64,000 nt of DNA from Ruminococcus sp. (lineage in GTDB: Bacteria > Bacillota > Clostridia > Oscillospirales > Acutalibacteraceae), in NCBI GenBank assembly GCA_017473555.1, contig JAFUKO010000117.1:5197-69196 (forward strand), read 5' to 3'. Shown here one piece after another: positions 4,103 to 29,461 of the stretch. The notes beneath the pieces were generated by a model. That model was not told where the DNA came from and did not search any database. It saw only the letters and a program-made list of their open reading frames with translations. Every line of letters begins with the position of its first letter. Within the stretch, counting starts at the first letter, position 1. The position numbers and the translations under genes are program-made.

Positions 4103-5289
4103 GAGTTGTACAGATAAATGCTACCTGTGGAAAAGGAAGTACAGGTAAGATAGCTGTTGATATAAGCCGGATGTTGACGGATAAGGGTATAGAAAATTAT
4201 ATTCTATACAGCAGTCCGACTTCGGATTATCCCTTGGGATTACAGTGTTCTGATGATAAATATATAAAGCTTCAGGCATTAAAATCCCGTGTTATGGGAA
4301 ACTATGGTTTCAATTCAAGTAAAGCAACCCAAAAGATAATTGCTCAGTTGGAGCGGATCAGACCGGATATAGTGCATTTACATAATATCCATGGTCACGA
4401 TTGCAACTTAAGATTGCTATTCAAATATTTCAAAAAGAACAGAACAAAGCTGTTCTGGACATTTCACGATTGTTGGGCATTTACAGGATACTGTACTTAT
4501 TTTGATATGGCAAAGTGTGACCGCTACAAAACCGGTTGCGGTAATTGCCCTCAAAAAAACACTTACAGCTGGATTTTTGACAAAAGCAGTAGCCTGTATC
4601 AGAAGAAGAAAGAACTGTTTTCGGGGCTTGACTTAACTATCATTACTCCGTCGCAGTGGCTTTGTGACCTTGTTGCACAGTCTTTTTTAAAAGACTATCC
4701 TGTTAAAGTTATCCACAATGGGATAGATTTAAATGTATTCAAACCAACTTATGGTGGCTTCAGGGAGAGATACTCTATCGAGTCTTCTCAGAAGGTTTTG
4801 CTGGGAGTAGCTTCCGAGTGGGAGAAGAGAAAAGGTCTGGATGTATTTATTGAGCTGGCAAAACGTTTGGGCGGCAGATATAAGATTGTTCTTGTTGGCA
4901 CTGATGACGCTATTGATTCTAGTCTGCCTGAGTCTATAATTTCGATTCATCGCACAAATAATCAGACTGAACTTGCACAAATCTATACTGCTGCTGATGT
5001 GTTCCTGATTCCAACGAGAGAGGATAATTTTCCGACGGTTAATCTCGAATCTCTGGCTTGTGGTACACCTGTTATTACTTTTAATACGGGAGGAAGTGCA
5101 GAGAGCTTAGACTCATCGTGTGGATGTGTGGTTAAGTGTGATGATGTTGATTCTATGGAGATGGAAATCAAAAGAATTTGTGAGAGCAACACGTTTTCAT
5201 CACAGGCGTGTGTTGAGCGGGCAAATCTCTTTGATAAAGAAAAAAAGTTTGTACAGTATATAAAGTTGTACGAGGAGGTATTCGATTGA
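4099..5289 (+). CDS. Glycosyltransferase family 4
   Basis: ATGA overlap with the upstream gene. C-terminal REDNFPTVNLESLACGTPVITFNTGGSAE motif. Confidence 0.8.
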   Translation: MRVVQINATCGKGSTGKIAVDISRMLTDKGIENYILYSSPTSDYPLGLQCSDDKYIKLQALKSRVMGNYGFNSSKATQKIIAQLERIRPDIVHLHNIHGHDCNLRLLFKYFKKNRTKLFWTFHDCWAFTGYCTYFDMAKCDRYKTGCGNCPQKNTYSWIFDKSSSLYQKKKELFSGLDLTIITPSQWLCDLVAQSFLKDYPVKVIHNGIDLNVFKPTYGGFRERYSIESSQKVLLGVASEWEKRKGLDVFIELAKRLGGRYKIVLVGTDDAIDSSLPESIISIHRTNNQTELAQIYTAADVFLIPTREDNFPTVNLESLACGTPVITFNTGGSAESLDSSCGCVVKCDDVDSMEMEIKRICESNTFSSQACVERANLFDKEKKFVQYIKLYEEVFD

Positions 5290-9200: not shown

Positions 9201-11089
9201 CTGCAACATGTACAGAAGACGGTTACACAGGCAGAACATACTGCGAAGTATGTAGCTCAATCGTTGATTATGGCACAGTAGTTGAGGCTAAGGGCCATAA
9301 TCATAAGGTGGATATCCAAAATGCTCAGATTGCTTGTGAGTGTGGCGATACTATTAAGTCTACAGGTATTATCGAGGTTGAGGGTAAGTCTTACTATGCA
9401 ATCAACGGTAAGCTTGTTAACGGCTGGCAGTTCATCGAAACTGACTGGTACTACTTTGACAGCAAGACTTACGCATCAGTTTCTACATACAACAACGGTG
9501 TTGTAACTTATGAGTTTGAAGAAGATGGTAAGTTAAAGTCAGGCGTATGGCATAAGACTTCACGTGGTAACAGATACTACTACGGTCCTTCATATTACAA
9601 GGCAACTCAGGCTGACCTTAAGGTTGAAATTGATGGTAATACATATTACTTCGGTAAAGATGGTTACTGCTTCACAGGTAATAAGTTCGTACTTTTATCC
9701 AACCAGGCTCATTTCCAGTGGTACCAGTTTGACGAAAACGGCGTACTCCTTGGCGAGTGGGATTACACAGGTCTTGCAAAGCAGAATGGCTACACTTACT
9801 GTGTAGTTGACGGTGTATCAGGACTTGGTATGTTCTATATGGATGGTGCATATTACTACACTGCAGCTGCTAACTACTTTGCTGCTGTTACAAATATTGA
9901 GCGTAATTGTTATGTAACAAACTGTCTGCTCCCAGTTGATGACTATCGTTTCGGTGCAGACGGTAGAATGCTTGATAACACAGTATGCTGTGTTGACAAT
10001 GTACTCTACTACTATGTACTCGGTAAGGTTTCACAGGGTACAGGTACTGTTACTATCAACGGCGAAGAGTGGTCAATCGATGAAAACGGTAAGGTTGACT
10101 TTACAGGTACAATGACTGATGCAAGCGGTCAGACTCTTGACTACGTTAACGGTGAACACAAATATATCCCTAAGAACGGCGTTGTTGGTGATTACTTCTA
10201 TGTAAACGATGTTGTTCAGAAGGCTTACCAGTTAGTTGAGTTTGAGGGTAACTACTACTTCATCAATGACTATAATAAGATTGCTAGAAACGGCAAGCTC
10301 TACTTAAATGATAAGTTTGTAGCAGGTCACACATATCCAAACGGTGACCCAATGAAGCCGGGTCTTTACGAGTTTGACAAAGACGGTAAGATGGTTATTC
10401 TTAACGGCGTTGTTGGTGAGTACTACTATGTAAACGGTATCGTTCAGAAGGCATGGCAGTTAGTAGAGTTCGAGGGTGACTACTACTTCATCAACGACTA
10501 CAACAAGCTTGCTAGAAACGGTAAACTCTACTTAAGCGAGAAATATGTAAGTGGTTTCACATATCCAAACGGCGACCCAATGCAGCCTGGTCTTTACGAG
10601 TTTGATAAAGACGGTAAGATGGTTATTCTTAATGGCGTTGTTGGTGAGTACTACTATGTAAACGGCGTTGTTCAGAAGGCATGGCAGTTAATAGAGTTCG
10701 AGGGTGACTACTACTTCATCAATGACTACAACAAGCTTGCTAGAAACGGTAAACTCTACTTAAGCGAGAAGTTTGTAGCAGGTCACACATATCCAAACGG
10801 TGATCCAATGCAGCCTGGTCTTTACGAGTTTGATAAAGACGGTAAGATGATTATTCTTAATGGTGTTGTAGGTGACTACTACTATGTAAATGGCGTTGTC
10901 CAGAAGGCATGGAAGTTAATTGAGTTTGAAGGTAACTTCTACTTTATCAACGACTACAACAAGCTTGCTAAGAACGGTAAGCTCTACTTAGGCGAGAACT
11001 TTGTAAAGGGCTTTACTGATGCAAACGGTAATCCATTAAAGCCAGGTCTTTATGAATTTGCTGCAGACGGCAAGATGATTCTTAACTAA
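6203..11089 (+). CDS. Large secreted phosphodiester glycosidase (NAGPA/DUF2233-like) with Ig-like domains and C-terminal cell-wall-binding repeats
   Basis: Signal peptide MKKFLAITLAVLMLVSVLPMSAFA. NAGPA-type core (RSMIGIKADGTLVFCQVDGRN ... AVNCDGGGSSTF). Choline-binding-type GW/YYF repeats from about aa 1040, then four 76-aa tandem repeats. Strong RBS AAGGAGG. Confidence 0.8.
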   Translation: MKKFLAITLAVLMLVSVLPMSAFAASFDTSVSNDYFSVISKKEYNLAPGATETELVLNSAAGDDRKVAHIFEVDTKNDQIQVLPGYYGIENLDPDNLALDGVADKSVYWKSEQLTKTVAYYEGLGYNVVGAMNTALAYDSNAPYGYMVYNGVVLGTPEVHKGAQTYLAIDAEGNCELRLMSTPLDGSEVTAISANFGWLVKDGVLVSKSVERTTSDASRSMIGIKADGTLVFCQVDGRNAPFSTGLSNYEMGEMMLSIGCVNAVNCDGGGSSTFVSKREGEEANVMRSVPSDGSERPTINSVILVSKAVSTGEFDHAVLTTDYEYYAPGTKATMTIKGVDAAGSPAEVPAEGISWQLSDSSFGTVVDGVFTSNGTKGDVTVQMLYNGNVVGEKTISIVDPDVFALAVDETVLPYGKSMALEFACTYGADDWDVCVDGAYTVALSDDTAATMDGNTLTATTDESVKGVTVTVTYKPNTAVKDTLLVTYGKGSEVIYDFEDGTTAGFVGFDEAKQWCIDNGVNNTLVGSDPLGGQFNEQVDGYTAVSDASKGEPVRNGNHALAWKIDNTNATFGNWTYNVIFNVGETIVLRDVANGKNATTLGMWLYIPEGAAGLAFQSQLYTKSGDSYTHCQSHFTFKTKSGTVKNLNSCTEADIPESRWVYASISLTAYDYVCTPIASFEGNARTPSFIRTYIKPTVPAVHTFYIDDITLDYSSAVDDRIAPDISNVSYTTADESVALADGATINGNTIAFSATVSDNTKLDYSTGKIYVDGNELTNVTCSGKTLASEGVTLTSGAHEVAFEVKDALGNPTKVVRNITVAGDSVVTLSGHNDSGKLPEIDSVYFVDINTNVADVNKLTTVLKLQTANNWETQGAVVADGFDAKFEYSEMTNLLTVTVERNGEAVDETATTLVSIPVRLWSWNTYNHVTGEVVTPDAQFATGYCPIVTVDCDVVQGSVEYVKNVNAGYLGAFGGSISVTTNINDNVNPWHKHTATAVEDKAATCTEDGYTGRTYCEVCSSIVDYGTVVEAKGHNHKVDIQNAQIACECGDTIKSTGIIEVEGKSYYAINGKLVNGWQFIETDWYYFDSKTYASVSTYNNGVVTYEFEEDGKLKSGVWHKTSRGNRYYYGPSYYKATQADLKVEIDGNTYYFGKDGYCFTGNKFVLLSNQAHFQWYQFDENGVLLGEWDYTGLAKQNGYTYCVVDGVSGLGMFYMDGAYYYTAAANYFAAVTNIERNCYVTNCLLPVDDYRFGADGRMLDNTVCCVDNVLYYYVLGKVSQGTGTVTINGEEWSIDENGKVDFTGTMTDASGQTLDYVNGEHKYIPKNGVVGDYFYVNDVVQKAYQLVEFEGNYYFINDYNKIARNGKLYLNDKFVAGHTYPNGDPMKPGLYEFDKDGKMVILNGVVGEYYYVNGIVQKAWQLVEFEGDYYFINDYNKLARNGKLYLSEKYVSGFTYPNGDPMQPGLYEFDKDGKMVILNGVVGEYYYVNGVVQKAWQLIEFEGDYYFINDYNKLARNGKLYLSEKFVAGHTYPNGDPMQPGLYEFDKDGKMIILNGVVGDYYYVNGVVQKAWKLIEFEGNFYFINDYNKLAKNGKLYLGENFVKGFTDANGNPLKPGLYEFAADGKMILN
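10175..11086 (+). repeat. Four in-frame tandem repeats of 228 bp (76 aa) at the 3' end of the 1628-aa gene
   Basis: Repeat units start at 10175, 10403, 10631 and 10859, each beginning AA(C/T)GG(C/T)GTTGT(T/A)GGTGA. The peptide unit is NGVVGEYYYVNGVVQKAWQLVEFEGDYYFINDYNKLARNGKLYLSEKFV.G.TYPNGDPM.PGLYEFDKDGKM.IL. Confidence 0.95.
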
Positions 11090-11098
11090 AATAAAAAG

Positions 11099-11114
11099 CC
11101 CCGCTATAGCGGGG
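11099..11114. terminator. GC hairpin after the large gene; weak or partial terminator
   Basis: CCCCGC-TATA-GCGGGG stem-loop. It is preceded by an A-run and followed by only TT on the + strand, so termination is probably partial. Confidence 0.35.
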
Positions 11115-11210
11115 TTGCGGCACAGGTTTAGAGCCTCCTCGTGGCGTGCCGTGGTAACATGTGATAGCATGGCAAAGACTAAACGAAAACTTACTTCCTG
11201 CGGAGGTACT

Positions 11211-11735
11211 ATGAATAGATATAAAAGAGCGATGTTAAAACTGTACTATAAATTTCTTGGTAGATTCAGACCTGAGAAGTATAAGGAGAAATATCCTCTG
11301 TTTTTAAGACAAATCGGTATCAATATTTCAGAAAACTACTACAGTACAAAACATGGTTTTATAGCTCCGTCGGTTGTATTCGATGCGAATGACTACTCGC
11401 TGATTTCTATTGGAGATGTGACAACTATATCATCCGAGGTTGTTTTTCTGACACACGATTATTCAATATCAAAAGGGCTTAAAATGATTGACCCGAATTT
11501 AAGTGGCAGATTTTTAAGACCAATCAGCGTTGGAGCTAATTCGTTTATTGGTATGAGAACCATTCTTTTGCCTGGTACTTCAATCGGTGACAATGTTATT
11601 GTGGGTGCCGGCTCTGTTGTGAAAGGTACTTTCCCTGATAATGTTGTTATTGCCGGTAATCCTGCAAAAATATTGTGCTCAACTCAGGAATGGGCACAAC
11701 GTCATATCGAGCTTTCAGATTACGATAAAATATGA
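11211..11735 (+). CDS. Hexapeptide-repeat O-acetyltransferase (WbbJ/maltose acetyltransferase-like)
   Basis: Left-handed beta-helix repeats (VGANSFIGMRTILLPGTSIGDNVIVGAGSVVKGTFPDNVVIAGNPAKI). Start moved to the ATG at 11211, 4 nt after GGAGG (11202-11206). The track ORF start at 11115 overlaps the upstream hairpin. Confidence 0.8.
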   Translation: MNRYKRAMLKLYYKFLGRFRPEKYKEKYPLFLRQIGINISENYYSTKHGFIAPSVVFDANDYSLISIGDVTTISSEVVFLTHDYSISKGLKMIDPNLSGRFLRPISVGANSFIGMRTILLPGTSIGDNVIVGAGSVVKGTFPDNVVIAGNPAKILCSTQEWAQRHIELSDYDKI

Positions 11736-11759
11736 CGCTGTTCTGCGAGGTGAATTTAT

Positions 11760-12734
11760 ATGACAGAACCTTTGGTTAGCGTTATAGTGCCGATATATAA
11801 TGCAAAGCAGTATTTGCCTCAGTGCATAGAATCGGTGCTTAATCAGAGTTACAATAATATAGAGCTTATCCTTGTAGATGACGGCTCTACAGACAACTCG
11901 TTTGAGGTATGTAACGAGTATTGTAAAAGTGATAATAGGGTCATAGCAGTCCGTCAGGAAAACACAGGCGTATCAGGTGCGAGAAACAAGGGGATTGATT
12001 TAGCCAAGGGGGAGTACATAGCCTTTGTCGACAGCGATGATGAGCTGATGGCAGATGGAATAAAGCTTTTGGTTGAGGATGCCATAAAGTATGATGCTGA
12101 TATGGTATCGGCGGTAAAACGAATTATCAACCCTGACGGTTCTGTATATAGTCCGTATGATGACGGCAAATGTATGATATATGAAGGTGTTGAGTCGGTA
12201 GAGCTTTCGCTCGATGGAGAAAGACAGACAAACTCTGCATGTGCAAAGCTTTTTAAAAAGAGTTTTTTAGGTGACATCAGATTTGCTGAGGGTCGCAGTA
12301 TTAATGAAGACGGATTCTTCCTTTTTGAGTGCTATGTAAAACTTCCTAAGCTTGTACAGCACAACATTTGTATTTACAATTATTACGTCAGGAGTAATTC
12401 ATCTACCAGAAGCGGTTTTTCAGAAAAATATTTCGATATGCTCTACTTTTGCGATAGAAAAAGAGAGATAATCAACGAGCTGTTTCCTCAGCTCAACCAA
12501 AAAATGACTAACCAAGAGGTTACTACAAATATCTTCTTTCTAGAGGCTTTGTGTAAGACTAAGGATAAAGCGTACACAAAGTATCAGAAGGATAGTATAA
12601 AACTGATAAGAAAAAATTATAAATCTTACACTACCATGAATGAACACGAAAGGAAGATGGCACGTATTATCAGATACGGATTTTATCCTCTGTATAAAGT
12701 TGCTGTCAGATTGGTTTATTACAGGGGTTTGTAA
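11760..12734 (+). CDS. Glycosyltransferase family 2 (GT-A)
   Basis: VSVIVPIYNAKQYL ... LILVDDGSTDNS ... AFVDSDDE (DxD) motifs. Confidence 0.85.
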   Translation: MTEPLVSVIVPIYNAKQYLPQCIESVLNQSYNNIELILVDDGSTDNSFEVCNEYCKSDNRVIAVRQENTGVSGARNKGIDLAKGEYIAFVDSDDELMADGIKLLVEDAIKYDADMVSAVKRIINPDGSVYSPYDDGKCMIYEGVESVELSLDGERQTNSACAKLFKKSFLGDIRFAEGRSINEDGFFLFECYVKLPKLVQHNICIYNYYVRSNSSTRSGFSEKYFDMLYFCDRKREIINELFPQLNQKMTNQEVTTNIFFLEALCKTKDKAYTKYQKDSIKLIRKNYKSYTTMNEHERKMARIIRYGFYPLYKVAVRLVYYRGL

Positions 12735-12818
12735 GAAACGTACCAAAAACGGGTATATAGATGATATGTTAAACTGTTGGTTTATGTATCATACACTTTT
12801 TAGGCGAAGGAAAGAACA

Positions 12819-14108
12819 ATGGCGAACAGAGTGTTAAAAAATGCATCGTGGATAGTCGGTTGTAAGATTGTGCAATCGATAATTACATTCCTTATAGGAA
12901 TGTTAACAGCCAGATATCTCGGACCATCCAATTATGGTTTGATCAGCTATGCATCGTCTGTTGTTGCATTTGCTCTTCCTATAATGCAGCTTGGTTTTAA
13001 TTCCACTTTGGTTCAGGAGTTTATTGAAAAACCTGAAAAAGAGGGAAAAATCTTAGGCACATGTCTGACGCTGAATATTCTTTCTGCTATCGCCTCAATT
13101 GTCGGCGTTACATCTTTTGCCTATATTGCTAATCCCGATGAAACAGAAACCGTAATTGTTTGTTTCTTATATAGCCTTACGCTTTTGTTCCAGGCTGTAG
13201 AAATGACACAGTACTGGTTTCAGGCTAAGCTTTTATCTAAGTATCCGTCAATAGTTGCTTTAATAGCTTATGTTGTTGTAGCTGTATATAAAATATATAT
13301 TCTGGTATCCGGAAAGAGCATACGCTGGTTTGCTGTTTCTCACGTTATCGAAGTATTTGTTATTGCGATACTGCTGATTGTTTTATTTAAGAAGCTGAGC
13401 AAGCAGAAACTGTCTTTTTCGTGGGAACTCGGAAAGCAGATGTTTAATAGAAGTAAATACTATATTACTTCCAGTATTATGGTTGTTATATTTCAGCAAA
13501 CTGACAGGATAATGCTCAAGCTGATGCTTGATGAAGCACAGACAGGATACTATTCTGCGGCAATCACATGTATAGGTATCACCAGTTTTGTGTTCAGTGC
13601 GATTATTGATTCAGCAAGACCGTCAATTCTTGAAAGCAAGGTGAGCTCGAAGGATAGGTTTGAGAAGAAAACAGTGGTTTTGTTTTCTGTTATTACAGCA
13701 CTTTCTTTGGCTCAGAGTATAGGAATGACACTGCTTTCAAAGCCGATAATTCTTATAGTTTATGGAGAAGCTTTTCTACCGGCGGTACCTGTGCTGAGTT
13801 GTGCGGTGTGGTTTGTAACATTCGGTTATTACGGAATGGTCAGAAATATCTGGATTCTGGCGGAAGGCCAGCAAAAGTACCTTTGGATTATCAATCTGTG
13901 CGGTGCTGTTATGAATGTTATAGTTAATCTGATACTTATTCCATTGTATGGAGCCGTAGGAGCGGCGGTAGCATCAGTTATTACGCAGTTCTTTACAAAT
14001 TTTGTTTTGTGCTTTGTAATCAAGCCGATAAGAAAATGCGGTTATCTTATCCTTAAGTCCTTCAACCCAAAAAATTTAGTGGCGTTTGTTAAGAAAAGGG
14101 GCTTTTGA
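12819..14108 (+). CDS. wzx: Wzx-type oligosaccharide flippase (MOP superfamily)
   Basis: About 12-14 TM segments, an N-terminal pattern like KNASWIVGCKIVQSIITFL..ML.ARYLGPSNYG, and its position in the polysaccharide locus. Confidence 0.8.
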   Translation: MANRVLKNASWIVGCKIVQSIITFLIGMLTARYLGPSNYGLISYASSVVAFALPIMQLGFNSTLVQEFIEKPEKEGKILGTCLTLNILSAIASIVGVTSFAYIANPDETETVIVCFLYSLTLLFQAVEMTQYWFQAKLLSKYPSIVALIAYVVVAVYKIYILVSGKSIRWFAVSHVIEVFVIAILLIVLFKKLSKQKLSFSWELGKQMFNRSKYYITSSIMVVIFQQTDRIMLKLMLDEAQTGYYSAAITCIGITSFVFSAIIDSARPSILESKVSSKDRFEKKTVVLFSVITALSLAQSIGMTLLSKPIILIVYGEAFLPAVPVLSCAVWFVTFGYYGMVRNIWILAEGQQKYLWIINLCGAVMNVIVNLILIPLYGAVGAAVASVITQFFTNFVLCFVIKPIRKCGYLILKSFNPKNLVAFVKKRGF

Positions 14109-14145
14109 TAGTATATTGGTAAAATTTTTCAAGTAGGTGATTAAA

Positions 14146-14568
14146 ATGAAAATAAAAAATATATTAATTATGGTCATAACAATTATGATGGTGTTTATTT
14201 TAGCAGGCTGTAACAACGACTCTGACACAGCTACTCCTTCTCAGGCAACACCTGATAGTGTAGTATCACCGTGGGAAAACGGTGGCAAACAGCCTAAGGA
14301 TTATACTTATGAAGAGTTTGAAGCTTTGAGTGCTGAACAACAGTTGGAGTTTCAGGAGTCTTTTAAATCCACAGATGAATTCAACGAGTGGCTTAACAAA
14401 GCTCAGTGGGTTGCTGTAGAAGTTCCGTGGGAAAACGGTGGCAAACAACCTGAGGATTACACATGGGAAGAGTTCGAAGCATTGAGTGATGAACAGCAGA
14501 TGGCTTTTCAGAATAGTTTTGAAGACAATAAAGATTTTGAAAATTGGTATTATAAGGTAAGTCCGTAA
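14146..14568 (+). CDS. Small lipoprotein with an internal duplication
   Basis: Lipobox LAGC. There are two about 50-aa copies of WENGGKQP.DYT.EEFEALS.EQQ..FQ.SF....F..W. The ATG at 14146 lies 6 nt after AGGTGA, and the track GTG at 14137 lies inside that SD. Confidence 0.7.
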   Translation: MKIKNILIMVITIMMVFILAGCNNDSDTATPSQATPDSVVSPWENGGKQPKDYTYEEFEALSAEQQLEFQESFKSTDEFNEWLNKAQWVAVEVPWENGGKQPEDYTWEEFEALSDEQQMAFQNSFEDNKDFENWYYKVSP

Positions 14569-20096: not shown

Positions 20097-22343
20097 TTAA
20101 TCTTCTATATTGTCTTCCTGTAAGCTTTTTTTCAGGTTTTCGAAGAAGTTGTTGTGGTCTTCAAGTACCGGCTTGAAAGATGGTTTAACCTTATGTTCAC
20201 TCGCTGCTATAGGCTCAGCACTACTGCTGTCAGCGTTTAAGTTAACGTGCTTTGCTGTTTTTGTAGCGGAGTAGATTTCCTCAGCTTCAACGTCATTATT
20301 CTCGCTTTCAAGAATCTTTTTAGCTTTTGATTCGTCAACAGGGCGAAATACCTTTGTTGAACCTGTTGGAGCGTCGTCAGTTGAAACGGATTGAGCTTCC
20401 TGCTTAGTTTCCATTTCTACGTCTTCGCCGTCATCAAATGGAGAGTCAGCAGGGTTCTGTTCTACAGGCTGGTGTTCAAAAACTTCCTCTTCTACCTCCG
20501 GTTCTTCGATCTCAACAGCACCGAAGTAAATCTGATACCATACAAGGAATACATATACAGTCCAGATTTTTCGTGAGTTATCTTCTTTTTCGTGGAAATG
20601 TTCATCGAGATATTCAACAAGAATGTTTGTGTTAAAGAACTTCTCGGCAGTCGGAGAAGTGAACATATCCTTGACAAGACCATAGTAGTGCTCGTCTTTG
20701 AGCCATACTCTTGTTGGAACAGGGAAGCCGAGCTTTTCTTTTTCAGCAGTAGCCTGTGGCAGATGGCGTAAAGCCGCCTGACGCATAGCATACTTTGTGT
20801 TATACTTGTTTACTCTCAGGTCTGTCGGAATAGTTGACGCTACCTTGAATACTTCTTTATCAAGGAACGGAACTCTAAGTTCAAGAGAGTTTGCCATACT
20901 CATACGGTCAGCTTTTAAAAGAATATCACCGACCATCCACATGTTGATGTCGAGATACTGCATCTTTGTTACATCATCATAGCGTCTTGCACGAGTGTAG
21001 TGACGTCTTACAAGGCGTGTTGGGTCAGTAGCCAGAGCAGAGTTCTTAAGCAAAGCCTTCTTCTGTTTCTGGTCATACATATATGCGTTACCGATGAAGC
21101 GTTTCTCCAGCGGATGAGTAGCACGGATGAGGTAATCTCTGCCCTTGATGTCAGGAAGCTTCTTGCAAACCCAGCAAATAGCTTTTCTGATACAGTATGG
21201 AACAATCTTCTGATAAAGGCTGAAAACTCGTGGGTCATTGTAGCAAGTGTAACCGCCGAACAATTCGTCAGCACCCTCACCTGAAAGTACAACCTTTACG
21301 TATTCGCTCGCAAGCTTTGCAACAAAGTAAAGAGCGATACAGCTAGGGTCAGCGAGTGGCTGGTCCATATGATACTGAACCTTTGGCACTGCGGCCCAGA
21401 ATTCCTCAGATGAAATGAGCTTTGTGTGGTGCTCAACACCTAGCTCTTTGGAAAGATTCTCAGCCCAGCTGATTTCGTTATATCTCTCACCAAAGTCAAA
21501 GCCTACAGTGAAAGTTTTCTGGTCTTTAAAGTATGTTGAAACGTAGCTGCTATCAACACCTGATGAGAGGAAACAACCAACCTCAACGTCAGCAATCTTG
21601 TGAGCGTTGACTGAGTTTTCGAAAACTGCCTCAATCTTATCAACAGCCTCGTCCTCTGTCATCTCGTGGTCAGGCTTGAATTTAGCTTCAAAGTAACGCT
21701 GTGTTTCAACAACGCCGTCTCTAAACCACATAAAGTGACCAGGCAGTAAACAGTAAACATTCTTAAAGAATGTCATTGGCTGTGGGCAGTACTGGAATGA
21801 AAGGTAGTGGTCTAAAGCCTCTTCGTTAAACTCTTTTTTAAACTCAGGGTGCTCTAAAATACTCTTGATTTCAGAGCCGTAGCACAGGTTGTCGCCAATA
21901 ACTGTGTAATGGAGCGGCTTAATACCAAAGAAGTCTCTGGCCAAGAACAGTGCCTTTGTTTCTCTGTTGTAAATAGCAAAGCCGAACATTCCGCGTAAGT
22001 GGTCGAACATTTCCTCGCCCCACTCTTCAAATGAGTGGATTAACACTTCACTGTCGGTATCGGTGTAGAAAGAGTGTCCGAGCTCGATAAGCTCTTTTCT
22101 CAAATCTTTGTAATTATATATCTCGCCGTTAAATGTGAGGACTAAAGACTTGTCCTCGTTGTAGATAGGCTGATGACCCTCGTCGAGGTCGATAATGCTC
22201 AGTCTTCTGAAGCCCATATTGATATAGTCATCAGAGAAAAAACCATCAGAGTCAGGACCTCTGTGAGTGATAACCTCAGTCATCTTTTTTATGGTGTTTT
22301 CACGCTGTTCTATTTGTCCTGTGAAGCCACAGATTCCGCACAT
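20097..22343 (-). CDS. asnB: Asparagine synthase (glutamine-hydrolysing) with an about 135-aa acidic C-terminal extension
   Basis: MCGICGF N-terminal nucleophile Cys, SGGVDSS PP-loop (here LSSGVDSS). Start set to the ATG at 22343 so that Cys is residue 2. AAGGAG lies 10 nt upstream, and the track start at 22370 lies upstream of that RBS. Confidence 0.9.
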   Translation of the reverse strand: MCGICGFTGQIEQRENTIKKMTEVITHRGPDSDGFFSDDYINMGFRRLSIIDLDEGHQPIYNEDKSLVLTFNGEIYNYKDLRKELIELGHSFYTDTDSEVLIHSFEEWGEEMFDHLRGMFGFAIYNRETKALFLARDFFGIKPLHYTVIGDNLCYGSEIKSILEHPEFKKEFNEEALDHYLSFQYCPQPMTFFKNVYCLLPGHFMWFRDGVVETQRYFEAKFKPDHEMTEDEAVDKIEAVFENSVNAHKIADVEVGCFLSSGVDSSYVSTYFKDQKTFTVGFDFGERYNEISWAENLSKELGVEHHTKLISSEEFWAAVPKVQYHMDQPLADPSCIALYFVAKLASEYVKVVLSGEGADELFGGYTCYNDPRVFSLYQKIVPYCIRKAICWVCKKLPDIKGRDYLIRATHPLEKRFIGNAYMYDQKQKKALLKNSALATDPTRLVRRHYTRARRYDDVTKMQYLDINMWMVGDILLKADRMSMANSLELRVPFLDKEVFKVASTIPTDLRVNKYNTKYAMRQAALRHLPQATAEKEKLGFPVPTRVWLKDEHYYGLVKDMFTSPTAEKFFNTNILVEYLDEHFHEKEDNSRKIWTVYVFLVWYQIYFGAVEIEEPEVEEEVFEHQPVEQNPADSPFDDGEDVEMETKQEAQSVSTDDAPTGSTKVFRPVDESKAKKILESENNDVEAEEIYSATKTAKHVNLNADSSSAEPIAASEHKVKPSFKPVLEDHNNFFENLKKSLQEDNIED

Positions 22344-22406
22344 ACAGCAAAACTCCTTTCGTTTAAGCATTGGCTAAAACTGTTATTTCTAAAAATAATC
22401 ATAATA

Positions 22407-24318: not shown

Positions 24319-24327
24319 TGATATAAT
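24319..24327 (+). promoter_or_regulatory. Extended -10 promoter element (TGaTATAAT)
   Basis: TG at 24319-24320 and TATAAT at 24322-24327. No good -35 is needed for extended -10 promoters. Confidence 0.4.
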
Positions 24328-24333
24328 ATAGTT

Positions 24334-24491
24334 GTACAAAGTTAAGGACCGCAACTTAATTTTGTATTGTTCTACCCTCCTCAATGTAGGCATAAGGCCT
24401 ATCATTGTACCCCTCATTTTTATATGGGCTATATGCCCGAAACAAAAAACAAAAGCGTTGAGTTACCGCAAGACTCAACGCTTTTTGTTTT
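24334..24491 (+). ncRNA. Candidate about 160-nt small RNA with two C-rich modules
   Basis: It is bounded by the extended -10 promoter and a strong terminator, with no RBS-preceded ORF. There are two about 35-nt pseudo-repeats, each UACCC(U/C)-rich followed by a short GGC/GCC hairpin (TACCCTCCTCAATGTAGGCATAAGGCCTA and TACCCCTCATTTTTATATGGGCTATATGCCC). Confidence 0.35.
24454..24491. terminator. Intrinsic terminator (bidirectional shape)
   Basis: AGCGTTGAGT-TACCGCAAG-ACTCAACGCT 10-bp stem followed by TTTTTGTTTT and preceded by an A-rich run. Confidence 0.8.
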
Positions 24492-24583
24492 GTATACTTG
24501 TTATCGAATAATGAAATAGTTTGCTTTTTATTATCCTTAATGGTATAATTATACAGTAAATAACAAAACTGAGGAGTGTAGTT

Positions 24584-26104
24584 ATGAAATTTAACGAATG
24601 TGTTGATAAGGTATCTACTTTTACTGATCTAAAACGTTTTGCTAATGAATATGTAATTGACTATAAAAGACTTTCTTTTGAAGAGTTGAAATCGGCGGTA
24701 GTTAAAACAGCACCTCAGTATTCAAATGAGGAAAACATTCGCTCTGTTGTTCGTAGTATTGAACTTAATATTGATAGAAATATCAGAGTTCTTTTCAACA
24801 TTTATATCAGAAACATACTGTTGAACTGCGATGATTTTACAGAAAGCGTGCGTGTTCTTGAAGATAAAATAATCGCTTATGAGCAAGATGTAGTTGATAC
24901 TGCTAATGAGTTTTCACTTAATGATGAAGTAGACAATATAGATTTTTATAAATATGTTGTTGAAGCAGCGTGGGAAGAAAATAACGATGTATCAGTCGAT
25001 GAACAAAACTTGATTAATAAGATTAAGGAAAAGTTAGGTATATCTGAAAAACATCATCAAATACTTGAAGCACAAATAGGTAAATTTCCAACAATAGGTA
25101 ACATGTTACATACAAAAGACGATATATCAGCTGTTAGAAGATATTTTCAAAATAGAGGCTTGATTATTTCGGTAAGAGATACGAACAACGTGGATTATGA
25201 TGTTATTCCTGAGGAAGTGGCATCGGTACTTAGACGAGTTTTTAATGTCGATATAAAAGAGTCTTCTTATTGGGCTTTATTAGAAAGCAAATATGTAAAG
25301 AGCAAAACTTACTTAATCGATATGTTGAGTAAAGCTAGAGTTGTTTTACCAAAGTATCCTAAATCATCTCAACTTAAAGAACTTGCAGTCAAAAATCTTA
25401 CGGCACATCAATTACTGGGTGGTTTTTCAGCTAATGATGGATTAGATAAAAAGACTCTTTCTGAATGGTGTAGTACTTTAGGTCTGGTGGCATATGGAGC
25501 TAAGCCAGAACTTATTAATAGAATTATTACATATTACGACAATATTAGACAGATACAATGTAATGAAGAGGATGACCGAGAGTTATTATTCCATTTTTAT
25601 GAGGAACTTGCAGGAAGAAAACTGGGAGATTTACGTCAGCAAGGAGTAATTAATAAAGATTTAGAATGTGAGCACAAGTTTGAAATAGCTACTAACTATA
25701 TATTTGAAAAAATATTTAAAATTAAGCCACTTATTATGAGTGGTACTGAACACCCTGATGGGATATTGTCATTTAACGACAAACTGATTATGTGGGATAA
25801 TAAGTCCAAAGAAACAGATGTATCATTAGTGGAACATATAAAACAATTTGACAGGTATATAAAGAGTTCATCAAAACCTGTAGCTGTGTTTATAGTAATA
25901 GGACCATCTTTTACAACAGATTCTCAAAAGGAATGTGCTAAATACGCTATGTCAAACGATACTATCATTTTGCTTATTACAGCATCGGAGCTAAAAGCTC
26001 TTGCTGAAAAATGGGCAAAAGCTCACGCTTCTGATTCTGAACCATTACCATTAGGTGTGTTTAAGCAAAATGGTAGATACAATCCAGAACTAGCTGTATT
26101 ATGA
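24584..26104 (+). CDS. Orphan SAP-domain protein with a C-terminal FokI-like PD-(D/E)xK nuclease domain
   Basis: SAP-like helix-extended-helix (LSEWCSTLGLVAYGAKPELINRIITYY). The C-terminal EHKFE ... HPDGILSFNDKLIMWDNKSK ... VAVFIVIGPSF ... TIILLITASELKAL parallels the FokI cleavage domain order (EMKVMEFF ... PDGAI ... VDTKAY ... FLFVSGHF ... AVLSVEELL). RBS GAGGAG. Spot counts show the gene is more AT-rich than its flanks. Confidence 0.55.
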   Translation: MKFNECVDKVSTFTDLKRFANEYVIDYKRLSFEELKSAVVKTAPQYSNEENIRSVVRSIELNIDRNIRVLFNIYIRNILLNCDDFTESVRVLEDKIIAYEQDVVDTANEFSLNDEVDNIDFYKYVVEAAWEENNDVSVDEQNLINKIKEKLGISEKHHQILEAQIGKFPTIGNMLHTKDDISAVRRYFQNRGLIISVRDTNNVDYDVIPEEVASVLRRVFNVDIKESSYWALLESKYVKSKTYLIDMLSKARVVLPKYPKSSQLKELAVKNLTAHQLLGGFSANDGLDKKTLSEWCSTLGLVAYGAKPELINRIITYYDNIRQIQCNEEDDRELLFHFYEELAGRKLGDLRQQGVINKDLECEHKFEIATNYIFEKIFKIKPLIMSGTEHPDGILSFNDKLIMWDNKSKETDVSLVEHIKQFDRYIKSSSKPVAVFIVIGPSFTTDSQKECAKYAMSNDTIILLITASELKALAEKWAKAHASDSEPLPLGVFKQNGRYNPELAVL

Positions 26105-26134: not shown

Positions 26135-26368
26135 ATGAAACCAAAAAAGTTTAACAATGCTCAAGATCAGAATATCAATGACGTTCTTTGTACCGTTTGG
26201 GATGCTCTGGAGTTTAAGGGCTATAACCCACGAAACCAAATCAGAGATTATCTGTACACTAACGACCCTTGCTACATCACAAATTATAACAATGCACGCA
26301 AGCTTTTAACCGAGCTTGACCGTGACGATATTATGGACCATTTAATGGATTATTACTTCAACGATTGA
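26135..26368 (+). CDS. ireB: IreB-family regulatory phosphoprotein (UPF0297/DUF965)
   Basis: NDVLCTVWDALEFKGYNPRNQIRDYLYTNDPCYITNYNNARKLL matches the family core seen in B. subtilis YrzL (V..[27 protein letters not shown]). Confidence 0.8.
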   Translation: MKPKKFNNAQDQNINDVLCTVWDALEFKGYNPRNQIRDYLYTNDPCYITNYNNARKLLTELDRDDIMDHLMDYYFND

Positions 26369-26492: not shown

Positions 26493-27752
26493 ATGGCAAA
26501 AGTTAAATGCGAATACTGCGGTAACTATATACTGAATACCGAGAGTACCTGTCCTAAGTGCGGTGCGGTAAATGAAAACCACCAGCGTATCGCTGATGGT
26601 ACACCGAAAACTATTACGCAACTTCAGGTCTGGTATAAAACCAGAGGTCTTCCACCGGAAGAAACAACCCGATTCTTTATCGGCAAGGACGTAAAAGAGC
26701 CTAGAGCTTTCGGTATTTATGAAGAAAACGGCACTTTCACTGTTTATAAAAACAAGTCTGACGGCTCCCGAGCTATCCGTTATAAGGGTACAGACGAAGC
26801 CTATGCCGTCAACGAGCTGTATTTAAGACTCAAAGAGGAGATTTTAAATCAGAAGAGCATAAATATCGCTAAAAGAGGAGTCGGCAACAGACCTGGCCCT
26901 AGTGTATACAACACATACAGCAAACCTAAACGCTCCGGAATATTCAGCAGGATATTTATAATTTTTATGCTGGTGGTTGTGTTCCTGCCAACAGTTGTTA
27001 CTTCTATACTTTCAATAGTTGGTTTAACAACCTATCTTGAAAGAGAGCACGGATACTACGTTACAAATACAAGCGACGTTTATTACTCAAGTGCTAAAGA
27101 GTATGACAATGGTTATGAGTGGTGGTTTTACGACCCGCAGGACGACATGTGGGAGCTTTATGCAACATTCGATAAAGCAAAGCATAGACCTGCTGCTCTT
27201 AGCGATGAAGAAAACTATGTTCTGTATACATCGTATTTAGACGTAAAAGAACATCTGAAACTCGAGTCAGATAAATTCCCGATTGAGGATACCAAAGAGT
27301 ACATAGATGCAGGTCATCACAGAAACCCTAGCACTTCGTATTACTACTATAACGATGATTTGTACTACTTCATTGATGATGAACACAGCTCATATGGTAG
27401 CAGTGACAACACAGGCTGGTATATCTACAACAAGAGCTTGAGCGATTGGGAATACTATTGCTCTGTCGATAATAAGGATGCACTTGGCGATGACTTGTGG
27501 TACAGCGATGGCGACTACTGGGCAGGAAGTGCCATTGATGATATCTACGGAGCAGATGAGTATCTTACAAACTGGACACCGTCAGGTTTTGAAGATACTT
27601 CGTGGTATCGCTCTTATGAGTCAAACGAATCTGCATATCAACAGCATCTTGAGGAAGAAAACAACAACAGGTACGATTCAGACTCAGACTACGATTGGGA
27701 TTCAGGCGACAGCTGGGATAGTGGCGGTACCGACTGGGACTCTGACTGGTAA
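26493..27752 (+). CDS. Zinc-ribbon, single-pass membrane protein with a Tyr/Trp/Asp-rich C-terminal region
   Basis: CEYCGN...CPKCG zinc ribbon at the N-terminus, a TM segment (IFIIFMLVVVFLPTVVTSILSIVGL), and an acidic DSDSDYDWDSGDSWDSGGTDWDSDW tail. Confidence 0.6.
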   Translation: MAKVKCEYCGNYILNTESTCPKCGAVNENHQRIADGTPKTITQLQVWYKTRGLPPEETTRFFIGKDVKEPRAFGIYEENGTFTVYKNKSDGSRAIRYKGTDEAYAVNELYLRLKEEILNQKSINIAKRGVGNRPGPSVYNTYSKPKRSGIFSRIFIIFMLVVVFLPTVVTSILSIVGLTTYLEREHGYYVTNTSDVYYSSAKEYDNGYEWWFYDPQDDMWELYATFDKAKHRPAALSDEENYVLYTSYLDVKEHLKLESDKFPIEDTKEYIDAGHHRNPSTSYYYYNDDLYYFIDDEHSSYGSSDNTGWYIYNKSLSDWEYYCSVDNKDALGDDLWYSDGDYWAGSAIDDIYGADEYLTNWTPSGFEDTSWYRSYESNESAYQQHLEEENNNRYDSDSDYDWDSGDSWDSGGTDWDSDW

Positions 27753-27809: not shown

Positions 27810-28100
27810 CATAGATTTTAAACCGTTGACGCGGAGATAAAGACAGCAAATGCCTTTACAGAGAGCCCGTGGTGCTGAAAGTCGGGTAAGAAACAGGTTG
27901 TCAAATGGACCGCTGAGGGTGCAGTCAAATGCGAGGTCTAAGCTTCGCAAAGTATTCTGCAACGTAGGGCATACGTCAGTTGCCTCGGATATGTCAGTAT
28001 TCGGTAAAGTGCACGATTATCGTGAATCAAGGTGGCACCGCGGATAATAAAGTTATTCGTCCTTGACAGTTCTAAAACTGTTAGGGACGTTTTTGTTTTT
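27810..28100 (+). promoter_or_regulatory. T-box riboswitch leader, tryptophan specifier (UGG)
   Basis: Stem I elements AGAGAG and GGTGCTGAAAG. Specifier-loop AAATGGA with UGG at 27906-27908 followed by a purine. Conserved T-box AATCAAGGTGGCACCGCG at 28025-28042. Terminator CGTCCTTGACAGTT/AACTGTTAGGGACG plus a T-run (28058-28100). Confidence 0.85.
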
Positions 28101-28240: not shown

Positions 28241-29461
28241 ATGGTATTTAGTAATATTGATTTCGACACATATTTTAGAAACTACCCTGACAAAGAGGGT
28301 TACTTTGGCAAATACGGCGGTGTTTATATCGACGATAAATTAAAGGCTGCTATGGCTGAGATTACTCAGGCTTACTTTACTATTTGTCAGTCACGCAAAT
28401 TTATCGCAGAACTCAGAAGAATCAGAAAAGAGTTCCAGGGCAGACCGACTCCAGTATCCCACCTTGAGCGTCTTTCAGATGCTATGGGCGGACGTGTCCA
28501 GCTTTACGCTAAGCGTGAGGACTTGAACCACTCCGGTGCTCACAAGCTCAATCACTGTATGGGCGAGGCTCTGCTTGCTAAATATATGGGCAAGAAAAAG
28601 GTTATCGCTGAGACAGGTGCAGGTCAGCACGGTGTTGCTCTTGCTACTGCGGCTGCTTATTTCGGTCTTGAGTGCGACATTTATATGGGTGCTGTTGATA
28701 TTAAGAAACAGGCTCCTAACGTTGCAAGAATGAAGATTCTGGGTGCAAACGTTGTTGAGGTTACTCACGGCTTGCAGACTTTAAAAGAAGCTGTTGATGC
28801 GGCTTTTGATGCATACAGTAAGGAATATGAAGACGCAATCTACTGCATCGGCTCAGTTTTAGGTCCTCATCCTTTCCCAATGATGGTCAGAGATTTCCAG
28901 AGCGTTATTGGTATCGAAGCAAGAGAGCAGTTCATTGATATGACAGGTCATCTTCCGGATGCTGTTGTTGCTTGTGTTGGTGGCGGTTCAAATGCTATGG
29001 GTCTTTTCTCCGGATTCTTAAATGACCCTGTTGACATTTATGGTATTGAGCCTCTCGGTAGAGGTGAAAAGCTCGGTGACCACGCGGCATCACTTAAATA
29101 TGGTTCAGAGGGCGTTATGCACGGCTTTAACTCAATTATGCTCAAAGACGAAAACGGCGAACCTGCTCCTGTATATTCTGTTGCAAGTGGTCTTGACTAT
29201 CCGTCAAGTGGCCCTGAGCACGCATTCTTACAGGAAATCGGCAGAGTTAAGTACGATGTAATCGATGACGAGGAAACAATCGATGCTTTCTATAAGCTCT
29301 CTCGTTTAGAGGGTATCATCCCTGCTATTGAAAGCTCACACGCTATTGCTTATGGTATGAAGCTTGCTCAGCGTATGGATCATGGCTCAGTGCTTATCAA
29401 CCTTTCAGGTCGTGGCGACAAGGATATGGACTACATCATTGAAAAATATGGTATCAGATAA
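28241..29461 (+). CDS. trpB: Tryptophan synthase beta chain (stand-alone; no trpA in the window)
   Basis: [19 protein letters not shown] (PLP lysine), [19 protein letters not shown] and GLDYPS motifs in canonical order. Confidence 0.85.

Follow-up and report, generated by a model that had tools for sequence, protein, structure and literature searches.

The gene described here, on contig JAFUKO010000117.1 of a Ruminococcus sp. assembly (GCA_017473555.1), encodes what is, by its domains, a modular restriction-type endonuclease: a known FokI cleavage domain follows a novel, SAP-containing recognition module, and no methyltransferase stands beside it. It lies in a stretch of 64,000 nucleotides (contig positions 5,197 to 69,196, forward strand; hereafter the window, whose numbering is used throughout) as an intact, ATG-initiated open reading frame (ORF) of 506 codons at 24584-26104 (+), and an NCBI 'hypothetical protein' from a Ruminococcus sp. 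metagenome-assembled genome (MAG) is 100% identical to its product. The logic is that of FokI with a different front end, and in this sense the protein holds no conceptual surprise. Nearly all known FokI-type cleavage domains come from type IIS restriction-modification (R-M) systems, and the SAP motif is better known from eukaryotic chromatin and repair proteins; here, the same cleavage domain is paired with a new, strongly conserved, SAP-containing DNA-binding front end, without a methyltransferase. The literature that we searched does not describe this family. With a confidence only slightly better than even, we favor the interpretation that the gene encodes a self-contained restriction-type nuclease directed against phages or plasmids, one that does not depend on host methylation for self-protection.

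The models give the predicted layout below, which runs from a novel helical module through a winged-helix-like element, a connector, the SAP domain, and a linker to the FokI-type nuclease. Two sets of relatives are used throughout: a close set of 32 homologs (49-91% identity) and a broad set of 57 relatives (down to 18%).

24584..26104 (+): predicted coding sequence of the 506-aa stand-alone FokI-type nuclease; ATG start, stop codon included
24584..24994 (+): N-terminal all-helical module, residues ~1-137; from the secondary structure of the models
24995..25243 (+): winged-helix-like element, residues ~138-220; tentative, from DSSP on the models
25244..25438 (+): helical connector, residues ~221-285; lowest conservation in the protein (mean pairwise identity 0.44)
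25439..25549 (+): SAP domain, a helix-extended loop-helix DNA-binding motif, residues ~286-322; from Pfam and the family profile
25550..25654 (+): helical linker from SAP to nuclease, residues ~323-357; from the models and the conservation profile
25655..26101 (+): FokI-type PD-(D/E)XK cleavage domain, residues ~358-506; from Foldseek, hhalign, and Pfam PF09254
25682..25684 (+): codon of E367, the acidic position of core helix 1; invariant in the 32 homologs and aligned to the E of FokI 'LEMKVMEFF'
25757..25759 (+): codon of D392, the 'PD' aspartate; invariant in the 32 homologs and aligned to the FokI PDG aspartate
25796..25804 (+): codons of D405-N406-K407, the (D/E)xK motif; invariant in the 32 homologs and aligned to FokI D-T-K

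The first-pass annotation, made from the sequence alone, had proposed a FokI-like cleavage domain and named 1FOK/2FOK as the structures to compare; FokI does prove to be the best match in the PDB. An AlphaFold2 (AF2) model of the full protein, built on the alignment of the 32 homologs, has a predicted local distance difference test score (pLDDT) of 91.7 and a predicted template-modelling score (pTM) of 0.81. The top three PDB matches of this model in Foldseek are FokI chains (2fok_B, 2fok_A, and 1fok_A), with E = 4.5e-7 and probability 1.0 for 2fok_B and E = 1.4e-5 for 1fok_A. Next in rank come the FokI-related nickase Nt.BspD6I, the small subunit of R.BspD6I (2p14), and HindIII; 2p14, which is the catalytic small subunit, gives a template-modelling score of 0.53 over 181 columns. 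A viral structure library returned no significant match to the full AF2 model.

Profile comparison places the two domains in the same register. With hhalign, the 57-sequence family profile aligns to the FokI cleavage domain over 112 columns (E = 2.9e-5, probability 74%), the FokI query being a lead rather than a database record. PDG is aligned with PDG, WDNKS with VDTKA, VAVFIVIGPSF with FKFLFVSGHF, and ILLITASELKA with AVLSVEELLI, which reproduces, against that query, the register first read by eye. The peptides from which it had been read are all present, in the order given: EHKFE (residues 363-367), HPDGIL (390-395), MWDNKSK (403-409), VAVFIVIGPSF (433-443), and TIILLITASELKAL (460-473), with the SAP motif LSEWCSTLGLVAYGAKPELINRIITYY (292-318) upstream. 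The spacing from D392 to D405 is 13 residues, as had been claimed, and the FokI aspartate aligned to D392 is one that we take to be D450 in FokI numbering.

E367, D392, D405, and K407 are each kept in at least 90% of the 57 relatives (18-74% identity), and the second acidic site alternates between D and E in distant relatives (WDCKS, YECKT, YDCKA), the textbook behavior of a (D/E)xK motif. The cleavage domain is also the most conserved part of the protein, with a mean pairwise identity of 0.69 and 42 of 125 columns invariant. It is presumably an active nuclease. The window protein is a divergent relative of PF09254 and not a curated member of it: alone, it matches FokI_cleav_dom at E = 0.0019 and 18.1 bits (residues 362-428), below the gathering threshold of 25 bits, yet the matches at the level of the family are significant, with PF09254 FokI_cleav_dom found in 25 of the 32 homologs at E <= 0.01 (best 3.1e-5). 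The narrow profile of close homologs aligned to FokI by hhalign at an insignificant E of 0.24. The link to FokI was therefore established by the broad 57-sequence profile and by the structure search, where single-sequence and narrow-profile searches failed.

The SAP-type motif upstream, which had likewise been noticed in the sequence, is well backed by the homologs and by solved structures. Among the SAP families (PF02037 / PF18953), the window protein alone matches SAP_new25 in Pfam at E = 0.0021 over residues 289-320, under the gathering cut-off; SAP (PF02037) is matched in 24 of the 32 homologs (best E 5.6e-11), and the 57-sequence profile matches the solved SAP domains of Ku70 (1jjr, E = 2e-5), SIZ1, DEK, and THO1. 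In the AF2 model the SAP helices span residues 289-298 and 307-319.

The remainder of the front half is largely novel. The N-terminal module contains a set of invariant residues (K17, R18, Y23, D26, T42, Q45, R68, A129, and W130). The region that follows it, residues ~138-220, is tentatively described as winged-helix-like from the models, in which it comprises helices 138-151, 155-164, and 178-190, a beta-hairpin at 195-207, and a helix at 210-219; its Foldseek likeness to MarR, PadR, and ArsR is weak and non-significant (E 0.6-3). A separate model of residues 1-330 (pLDDT 81.8) found no significant match in the PDB by Foldseek, the best E being 0.56. Across the family, the front half is conserved throughout, at 44-56% mean pairwise identity and with no hypervariable segment, a pattern that points to a single target feature shared by the family and not to a range of sequence specificities. 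Two weak matches were set aside as non-significant, one to ENT in Pfam (E = 0.15) and one in the PDB to KRIPP9 (E = 0.029) over the SAP/helical stretch; an NCBIfam match of the window protein, at 13 bits, was spurious.

More distant relatives (P0232, P0254, P0208, P0270, P0133, and P0255) retain the N-terminal module and carry either at least two SAP repeats or a basic/low-complexity N-terminal extension of ~100 aa. Pfam detects two SAP domains each in P0255, P0254, and P0133, the extra repeats being added to the one at the usual position. P0255 is apparently without a nuclease domain.

Set beside FokI and Nt.BspD6I/R.BspD6I, the protein shares the arrangement of a single chain, in which an N-terminal recognition region with helix-turn-helix or winged-helix elements is followed by a helical linker and then by the PD-(D/E)XK cleavage domain at the C-terminus. 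With FokI in particular it shares the catalytic register (E, PD, DxK), the helix and strands that follow, and an approximate size (506 aa, against FokI chains of 558-568 residues). It differs from FokI in having a SAP domain, which FokI does not have, in a recognition half without significant similarity to FokI D1-D3 or to any PDB entry, and in a shorter spacing from PD to DxK (13 residues, against 17). The absence of a linked methyltransferase is a further difference, and it extends well beyond this genome.

In the window, no methyltransferase is encoded within ±8 kb of the gene, and a crude scan of the ORFs of at least 150 aa across all 64 kb found neither [DNS]PP[YFWH] nor PCQxFS. The first-pass annotation had reported no adjacent methyltransferase, specificity subunit, or second nuclease, and this holds here and in ~80 homologous loci. 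Clustering of up to four genes per side in 83 non-redundant loci yielded no recurrent partner gene; generic XRE-type regulators, found at differing offsets in 8 loci, and ABC ATPases, found in 6, form the largest neighbor clusters. The 147 immediate neighbors fall into 217 Pfam families, of which the commonest are 23S_rRNA_IVP (5), HTH_3 (5), DUF559 (3), and SLFN/AlbA_2 (3); no DNA methyltransferase family occurs three or more times among them. Six contexts of family members that were annotated with Pfam are all different from one another. The immediate neighbors do include genes of defense or mobile character: pAgo, PARIS AriA, a DRT reverse transcriptase, a methyl-directed restriction endonuclease, SLFN/AlbA_2, DUF559, and 23S_rRNA_IVP, with tyrosine recombinases near the nuclease gene in 4 loci. 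At one locus (L003) the neighbors include a HigBA-like pair and GmrSD, and a DUF4062 protein is also among the defense genes that stand beside the nuclease gene.

The gene had also been called an orphan. In the sense of having no relatives it is not one, as it belongs to a well-conserved family of uniform length. The family comprises 431 clusters at 90% identity, nearly all of ~505 aa. An exhaustive search of 1.84 billion representatives clustered at 50% identity recovered 418 members, of which 106 reach E <= 1e-30. It is carried by 215 of 185,579 species-representative genomes, mostly MAGs of Oscillospirales and other gut Clostridia. Further carriers belong to the Christensenellaceae, Erysipelotrichaceae, Acholeplasmataceae, Izimoplasma, Victivallales, Kiritimatiellae, and Puniceicoccaceae, together with one Woesearchaeote, and the proteins of these carriers outside the core are 44-52% identical to the window protein. 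The family thus reaches Verrucomicrobiota, Mollicutes-like lineages, and one archaeon. So thin a spread across phyla is not the pattern of a housekeeping gene.

Composition likewise sets the gene apart from its surroundings. A foreign-looking base composition had been suspected from two spot counts, and windowed G+C at this locus confirms it (0.30-0.33 in the gene, 0.40-0.46 in the flanks), as does G+C at third codon positions (GC3), which is 0.22 in the nuclease gene and 0.32-0.47 in eleven flanking genes (about 0.42 locally). The same is true of the family: in 78 of 81 loci the G+C content of the nuclease gene falls short of that of its flanks; the gap averages 9.6 points and reaches 25. The gene stays at ~30-35% G+C even in hosts of 60% G+C.

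What moves appears to be the gene alone, with its own expression signals. In the window these are the following:

24541..24549 (+): extended -10 promoter element TGGTATAAT, candidate promoter of the nuclease gene; read directly from the sequence, 3' of a terminator at 24451-24485
24571..24576 (+): Shine-Dalgarno sequence GAGGAG, 7 nt 5' of the ATG

A TATAAT-like box occupies the same position 5' of nuclease homologs in unrelated contexts (upstream alignment columns ~470-480), and a purine-rich GGAG/GGGG box is kept in 7 of 7 aligned homolog upstream regions. For TGGTATAAT a -35 element is not clear, and a consensus promoter scan did not report the site at 24541-24549; from its position and its counterparts, TGGTATAAT is probably the nuclease gene's own promoter. 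Homologs elsewhere retain their own -10 box and ribosome-binding site 5' and, in most genomes, a hairpin terminator 3'. Since these signals are kept in unrelated contexts, the mobile unit is the single gene. In some genomes it is present twice, at different loci: L003/L012 lie on the same 767-kb contig, L072/L082 in the same MAG, and L064/L085 in Izimoplasma sp. ZiA1. The copies of the first two pairs are ~80% identical and both intact; L085, the second Izimoplasma copy, is split into two ORFs.

Carriage by phages and plasmids is rare in the collections searched: none of 50,697 phage records has a family member, a plasmid collection gave one match at 24% identity, and in IMG/VR 1 of 2.9 million contigs carries one. 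That contig (L173; UViG_3300029588_000321, 9337-13042) carries a homolog of 60% identity, flanked by a CI-like repressor (HTH_3 + Peptidase_S24) on one side and by a phage integrase on the other, and the prophage-like element also encodes a small terminase, PcfJ, and a Rep protein. The gap between repressor and integrase is a classic site of prophage-borne accessory or defense genes. Phage-borne cousins of the same layout are suggested by phrog_34709, a phage family with a 614-position profile, which P0232 and P0208 match weakly over their N-terminal and nuclease regions (E = 9e-5 and 0.0018); the window protein itself has no match to it.

The mobility of the family does not mean that the gene is a recent arrival here. 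The order in the window is DUF554, MntP, nuclease, IreB, a 419-aa protein, and a trpB-like gene led by a T-box; the placement between mntP and ireB, with DUF554 just upstream, is as first described. Two other species (L013 and L014, with 91% and 87% protein identity) carry the nuclease gene at the same AsnB-DUF554-MntP locus. Across the three species, synonymous divergence (dS) of the nuclease gene is saturated (>2.6 or undefined), nonsynonymous divergence (dN) is 0.05-0.08, and dN/dS is about 0.02; the adjacent mntP evolves faster, with dN of 0.19-0.28 in the same species. From the saturated dS, the low dN/dS, and the shared locus it follows that the gene has long been present in this clade and that strong purifying selection acts on it; given the synteny and saturated dS shared with L013 and L014, we rejected a recent arrival in this lineage. 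Its low GC3 has not drifted to the host value despite this age, perhaps because selection keeps a dangerous protein weakly expressed. The 80 metagenome MntP loci compared were too distant for an empty site to be shown (53-70% identity, no shared synteny). Taken over the family, the gene is a conserved, selected, and horizontally mobile single-gene cassette.

How such a cassette might act can be outlined by analogy. The front half (helical module, winged-helix-like element, and SAP) would bind DNA, as the front half of FokI does, and the helical linker would join it to the cleavage domain with its intact E-PD-DxK site. Having a single active site, the cleavage domain would have to pair with that of a second copy, again as in FokI, before both DNA strands could be cut close to where the front half is bound. 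Foreign DNA would be told apart by a feature missing from the host chromosome, which could be a DNA modification, in a manner like that of Type IV or IIM enzymes; an unusual DNA structure or an infection-dependent trigger could serve in its place. A modification- or structure-dependent (Type IV / IIM-like) enzyme is the most economical of these readings. The argument for self-protection without methylation follows from the lone-gene horizontal transfer, without a methyltransferase, of the family: a sequence-specific restriction endonuclease that cuts unmodified DNA could not persist if it were carried alone, time after time, into naive hosts. Comparable reasoning has been applied to winged-helix-nuclease fusions, of which those that stand alone without a linked methyltransferase were argued to be modification-specific (PMC11037411). 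A resting state in which the cleavage domain is sequestered would be in keeping with the compact, high-pTM model. A role in defense is, on this sequence-based evidence, plausible and the role that we favor. More specifically, the family may represent a new single-chain, methyltransferase-independent FokI-type class, a Type IV-like defense family, spread horizontally among gut anaerobes and beyond, in which the module reads a base or backbone modification or an unusual structure and a FokI-like dimer cuts nearby; this narrower proposal we put forward only tentatively.

The nearest functional parallels would be DpnI and the fusions of PMC11037411, which are also solitary reader-nuclease fusions, independent of nucleoside triphosphates, with no neighboring methyltransferase and with a winged-helix-like element. 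They differ from the window protein, whose nuclease is of FokI type and C-terminal and whose reader is far larger (~320 aa) and largely novel, including a SAP domain. Searches with the window protein brought up neither the DpnI winged helix nor any SRA/PUA/EVE reader, and modification dependence is here a prediction.

Several observations weigh against the defense interpretation or against the domain assignments on which it builds. Neither single-sequence Pfam match of the window protein (FokI_cleav_dom, SAP_new25) reaches its gathering threshold, and sequence-only searches of the PDB, whether with the single protein, the close-homolog profile, or the broad profile, did not reach FokI. The N-terminal region, in which only a winged-helix-like element is seen, has no significant match to a known modification reader (SRA, PUA/EVE, YTH, DpnI-type winged helix, sulfur-binding domain) in Pfam or by Foldseek. 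None of the families in PADLOC-DB v2.0.0 (5027 models) matches the window protein at E <= 10. PADLOC models match 98 families for the 147 immediate neighbors and 255 for 147 genes of the same loci that lie 6.5 kb or more from the nuclease gene; distal genes are thus at least as rich in such matches, and the neighbor comparison does not discriminate defense islands. In the lineage of the window, three species or more have stably inherited the gene at a single housekeeping locus, a persistence that exceeds that of many defense genes. Finally, ireB lies 30 bp 3' of the nuclease gene with no terminator between them.

Four other explanations deserve consideration. The architecture and the best structural matches (FokI, Nt.BspD6I) would suit a classical Type IIS enzyme acting on an unmodified sequence, with its cognate methyltransferase encoded elsewhere in the genome, beyond the ±10 kb per genome, or the 64-kb window, that inspection covered. 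Separate recognition and cleavage domains, as in Type IIS R-M systems, are indeed present, and an adjacent cognate methyltransferase is not. We nevertheless consider such an enzyme very improbable: no methyltransferase family recurs among the 147 neighbors, no partner cluster lies within four genes per side in the 83 loci, and the gene crosses from phylum to phylum unaccompanied, bringing its own promoter and terminator, under which circumstances an unprotected sequence-specific restriction endonuclease could not establish itself. The recognition half, moreover, is conserved throughout and has no hypervariable segment, whereas the recognition domains of type II enzymes diverge fast. It is also conceivable, though unlikely, that the protein is an abortive-infection or toxin-type nuclease, kept inactive, for instance as a monomer whose cleavage domain is sequestered, until a phage-derived trigger frees it to degrade DNA indiscriminately. 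A stand-alone nuclease without an immunity gene would fit this, as would the predicted compact fold (pTM 0.81), which suggests domains packed together as in autoinhibited FokI; the neighbors are sometimes of abortive-infection or toxin-antitoxin type (HigBA-like pairs, PARIS AriA), and so low a GC3 could hold down the output of a harmful protein. Scans with Pfam, PADLOC, and NCBIfam, however, found no known sensor domain of the abortive-infection type (STAND, TIR, CBASS-like), the front half resembles a DNA-binding module and not a protein sensor, and no small antitoxin-like gene recurs.

FAN1 is a structure-specific nuclease composed of SAP, TPR, and VRR-NUC domains, and bacterial homologs of it exist. 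FAN1 likewise unites a SAP domain and a PD-(D/E)XK nuclease in a single chain (~500-600 aa), and the window protein might by this likeness be a FAN1-like cellular nuclease, structure-specific and engaged in DNA repair, recombination, or nucleoid-associated functions. One distant relative has a weak FANC_SAP match, LexA and a MutS2-like gene lie within 6 kb of the nuclease gene in the window, length and sequence are uniform across the family, and strong purifying selection at a stable housekeeping locus in three species would be expected of such a gene. Yet its nuclease matches FokI and not VRR-NUC/FAN1, Pfam finds neither TPR nor VRR_NUC, and none of the 50 best Foldseek matches is FAN1. In its distribution and contexts the gene has the character of a mobile accessory gene, being present in only ~0.1% of species genomes scattered over phyla and at a different locus in nearly every lineage. 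Its base composition is unusual in 78 of 81 loci, there are genomes with two diverged copies, and in one case the gene is part of a prophage lysogeny module. A cellular role of this kind is accordingly rather improbable. Distinctly improbable, too, is a selfish element, a free-standing nuclease of homing or addiction type that promotes its own spread or retention, although a single-gene cassette of foreign composition in many unrelated intergenic sites, at times in two copies per genome and in 4 loci near tyrosine recombinases, has something of that appearance. The gene is associated with no intron, intein, transposase, or terminal repeats, the family is almost absent from the phage and plasmid collections, where homing endonucleases thrive, and retention to dS saturation at a dN/dS of about 0.02 suggests a benefit to the host.

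FokI-type cleavage domains are the workhorse of engineered nucleases, and here one is joined to a new front end. If the protein is a defense enzyme, it would be a single-gene system that current defense catalogs have missed, and it would raise the question of which DNA feature spares the host. A modification-dependent enzyme could become a reagent for mapping that modification; a repair enzyme would provide a bacterial parallel to the SAP-containing nucleases of eukaryotes.

The locus has features of its own that merit description. A structured RNA candidate lies upstream of the nuclease gene:

24319-24496 (+): structured RNA candidate; promoter-like TTGATATAATAT, then ~170 nt with four hairpins

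Its minimum free energy is -54.9 kcal/mol (z = -6.7 against shuffles), its last hairpin is the strong terminator at 24451-24485, and Rfam gave no match at E <= 1. The element is nearly identical in L013 and L014, though their MntP proteins are only 66-73% identical, and it was not found upstream of nuclease homologs in other contexts. The first-pass annotation had described the nuclease gene as preceded by its own terminator-bounded RNA; the promoter-like site and the terminator are real, but conservation is confined to the host locus, and the RNA is not part of the gene's cassette. A role as RNA antitoxin or regulator was rejected as a family feature, given that homologs in other contexts are without the element. 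The RNA is best regarded as a candidate small RNA of the host locus.

Downstream, the window contains the following:

26135-26368 (+): IreB-family gene, 77 aa, starting 30 bp past the nuclease stop
26493-27752 (+): 419-aa protein; zinc-ribbon-like CxxC...CxxC motif near the N-terminus, a hydrophobic stretch, and an extended C-terminal part rich in D/Y/W/S
27817-28067 (+): T-box leader (RF00230), 88.8 bits (gathering score 93), E = 6.7e-19

The 419-aa protein has no Pfam match. The T-box leader ends in a terminator (28058-28089) upstream of the trpB-like PALP gene at 28241-29461. The interval between the nuclease gene and trpB differs among the three species: the window has IreB and the 419-aa protein, both missing at this position in L013 and L014, which have other genes there, including a DUF559 gene. 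As the two genes are absent from this position in both syntenic species, the interval from mntP to trpB is a variable spot. On the far side of DUF554, at 20097-22370 (-), is an AsnB-type asparagine synthase of 757 aa, prolonged at its C-terminus by a long acidic stretch of low complexity. In L014 the TrpB-like protein (12968-14185) is 99% identical to that of the window (28241-29461), while the products of adjacent genes are 66-87% identical, a mismatch that points to a recombination mosaic or to an assembly or binning chimera in one MAG.

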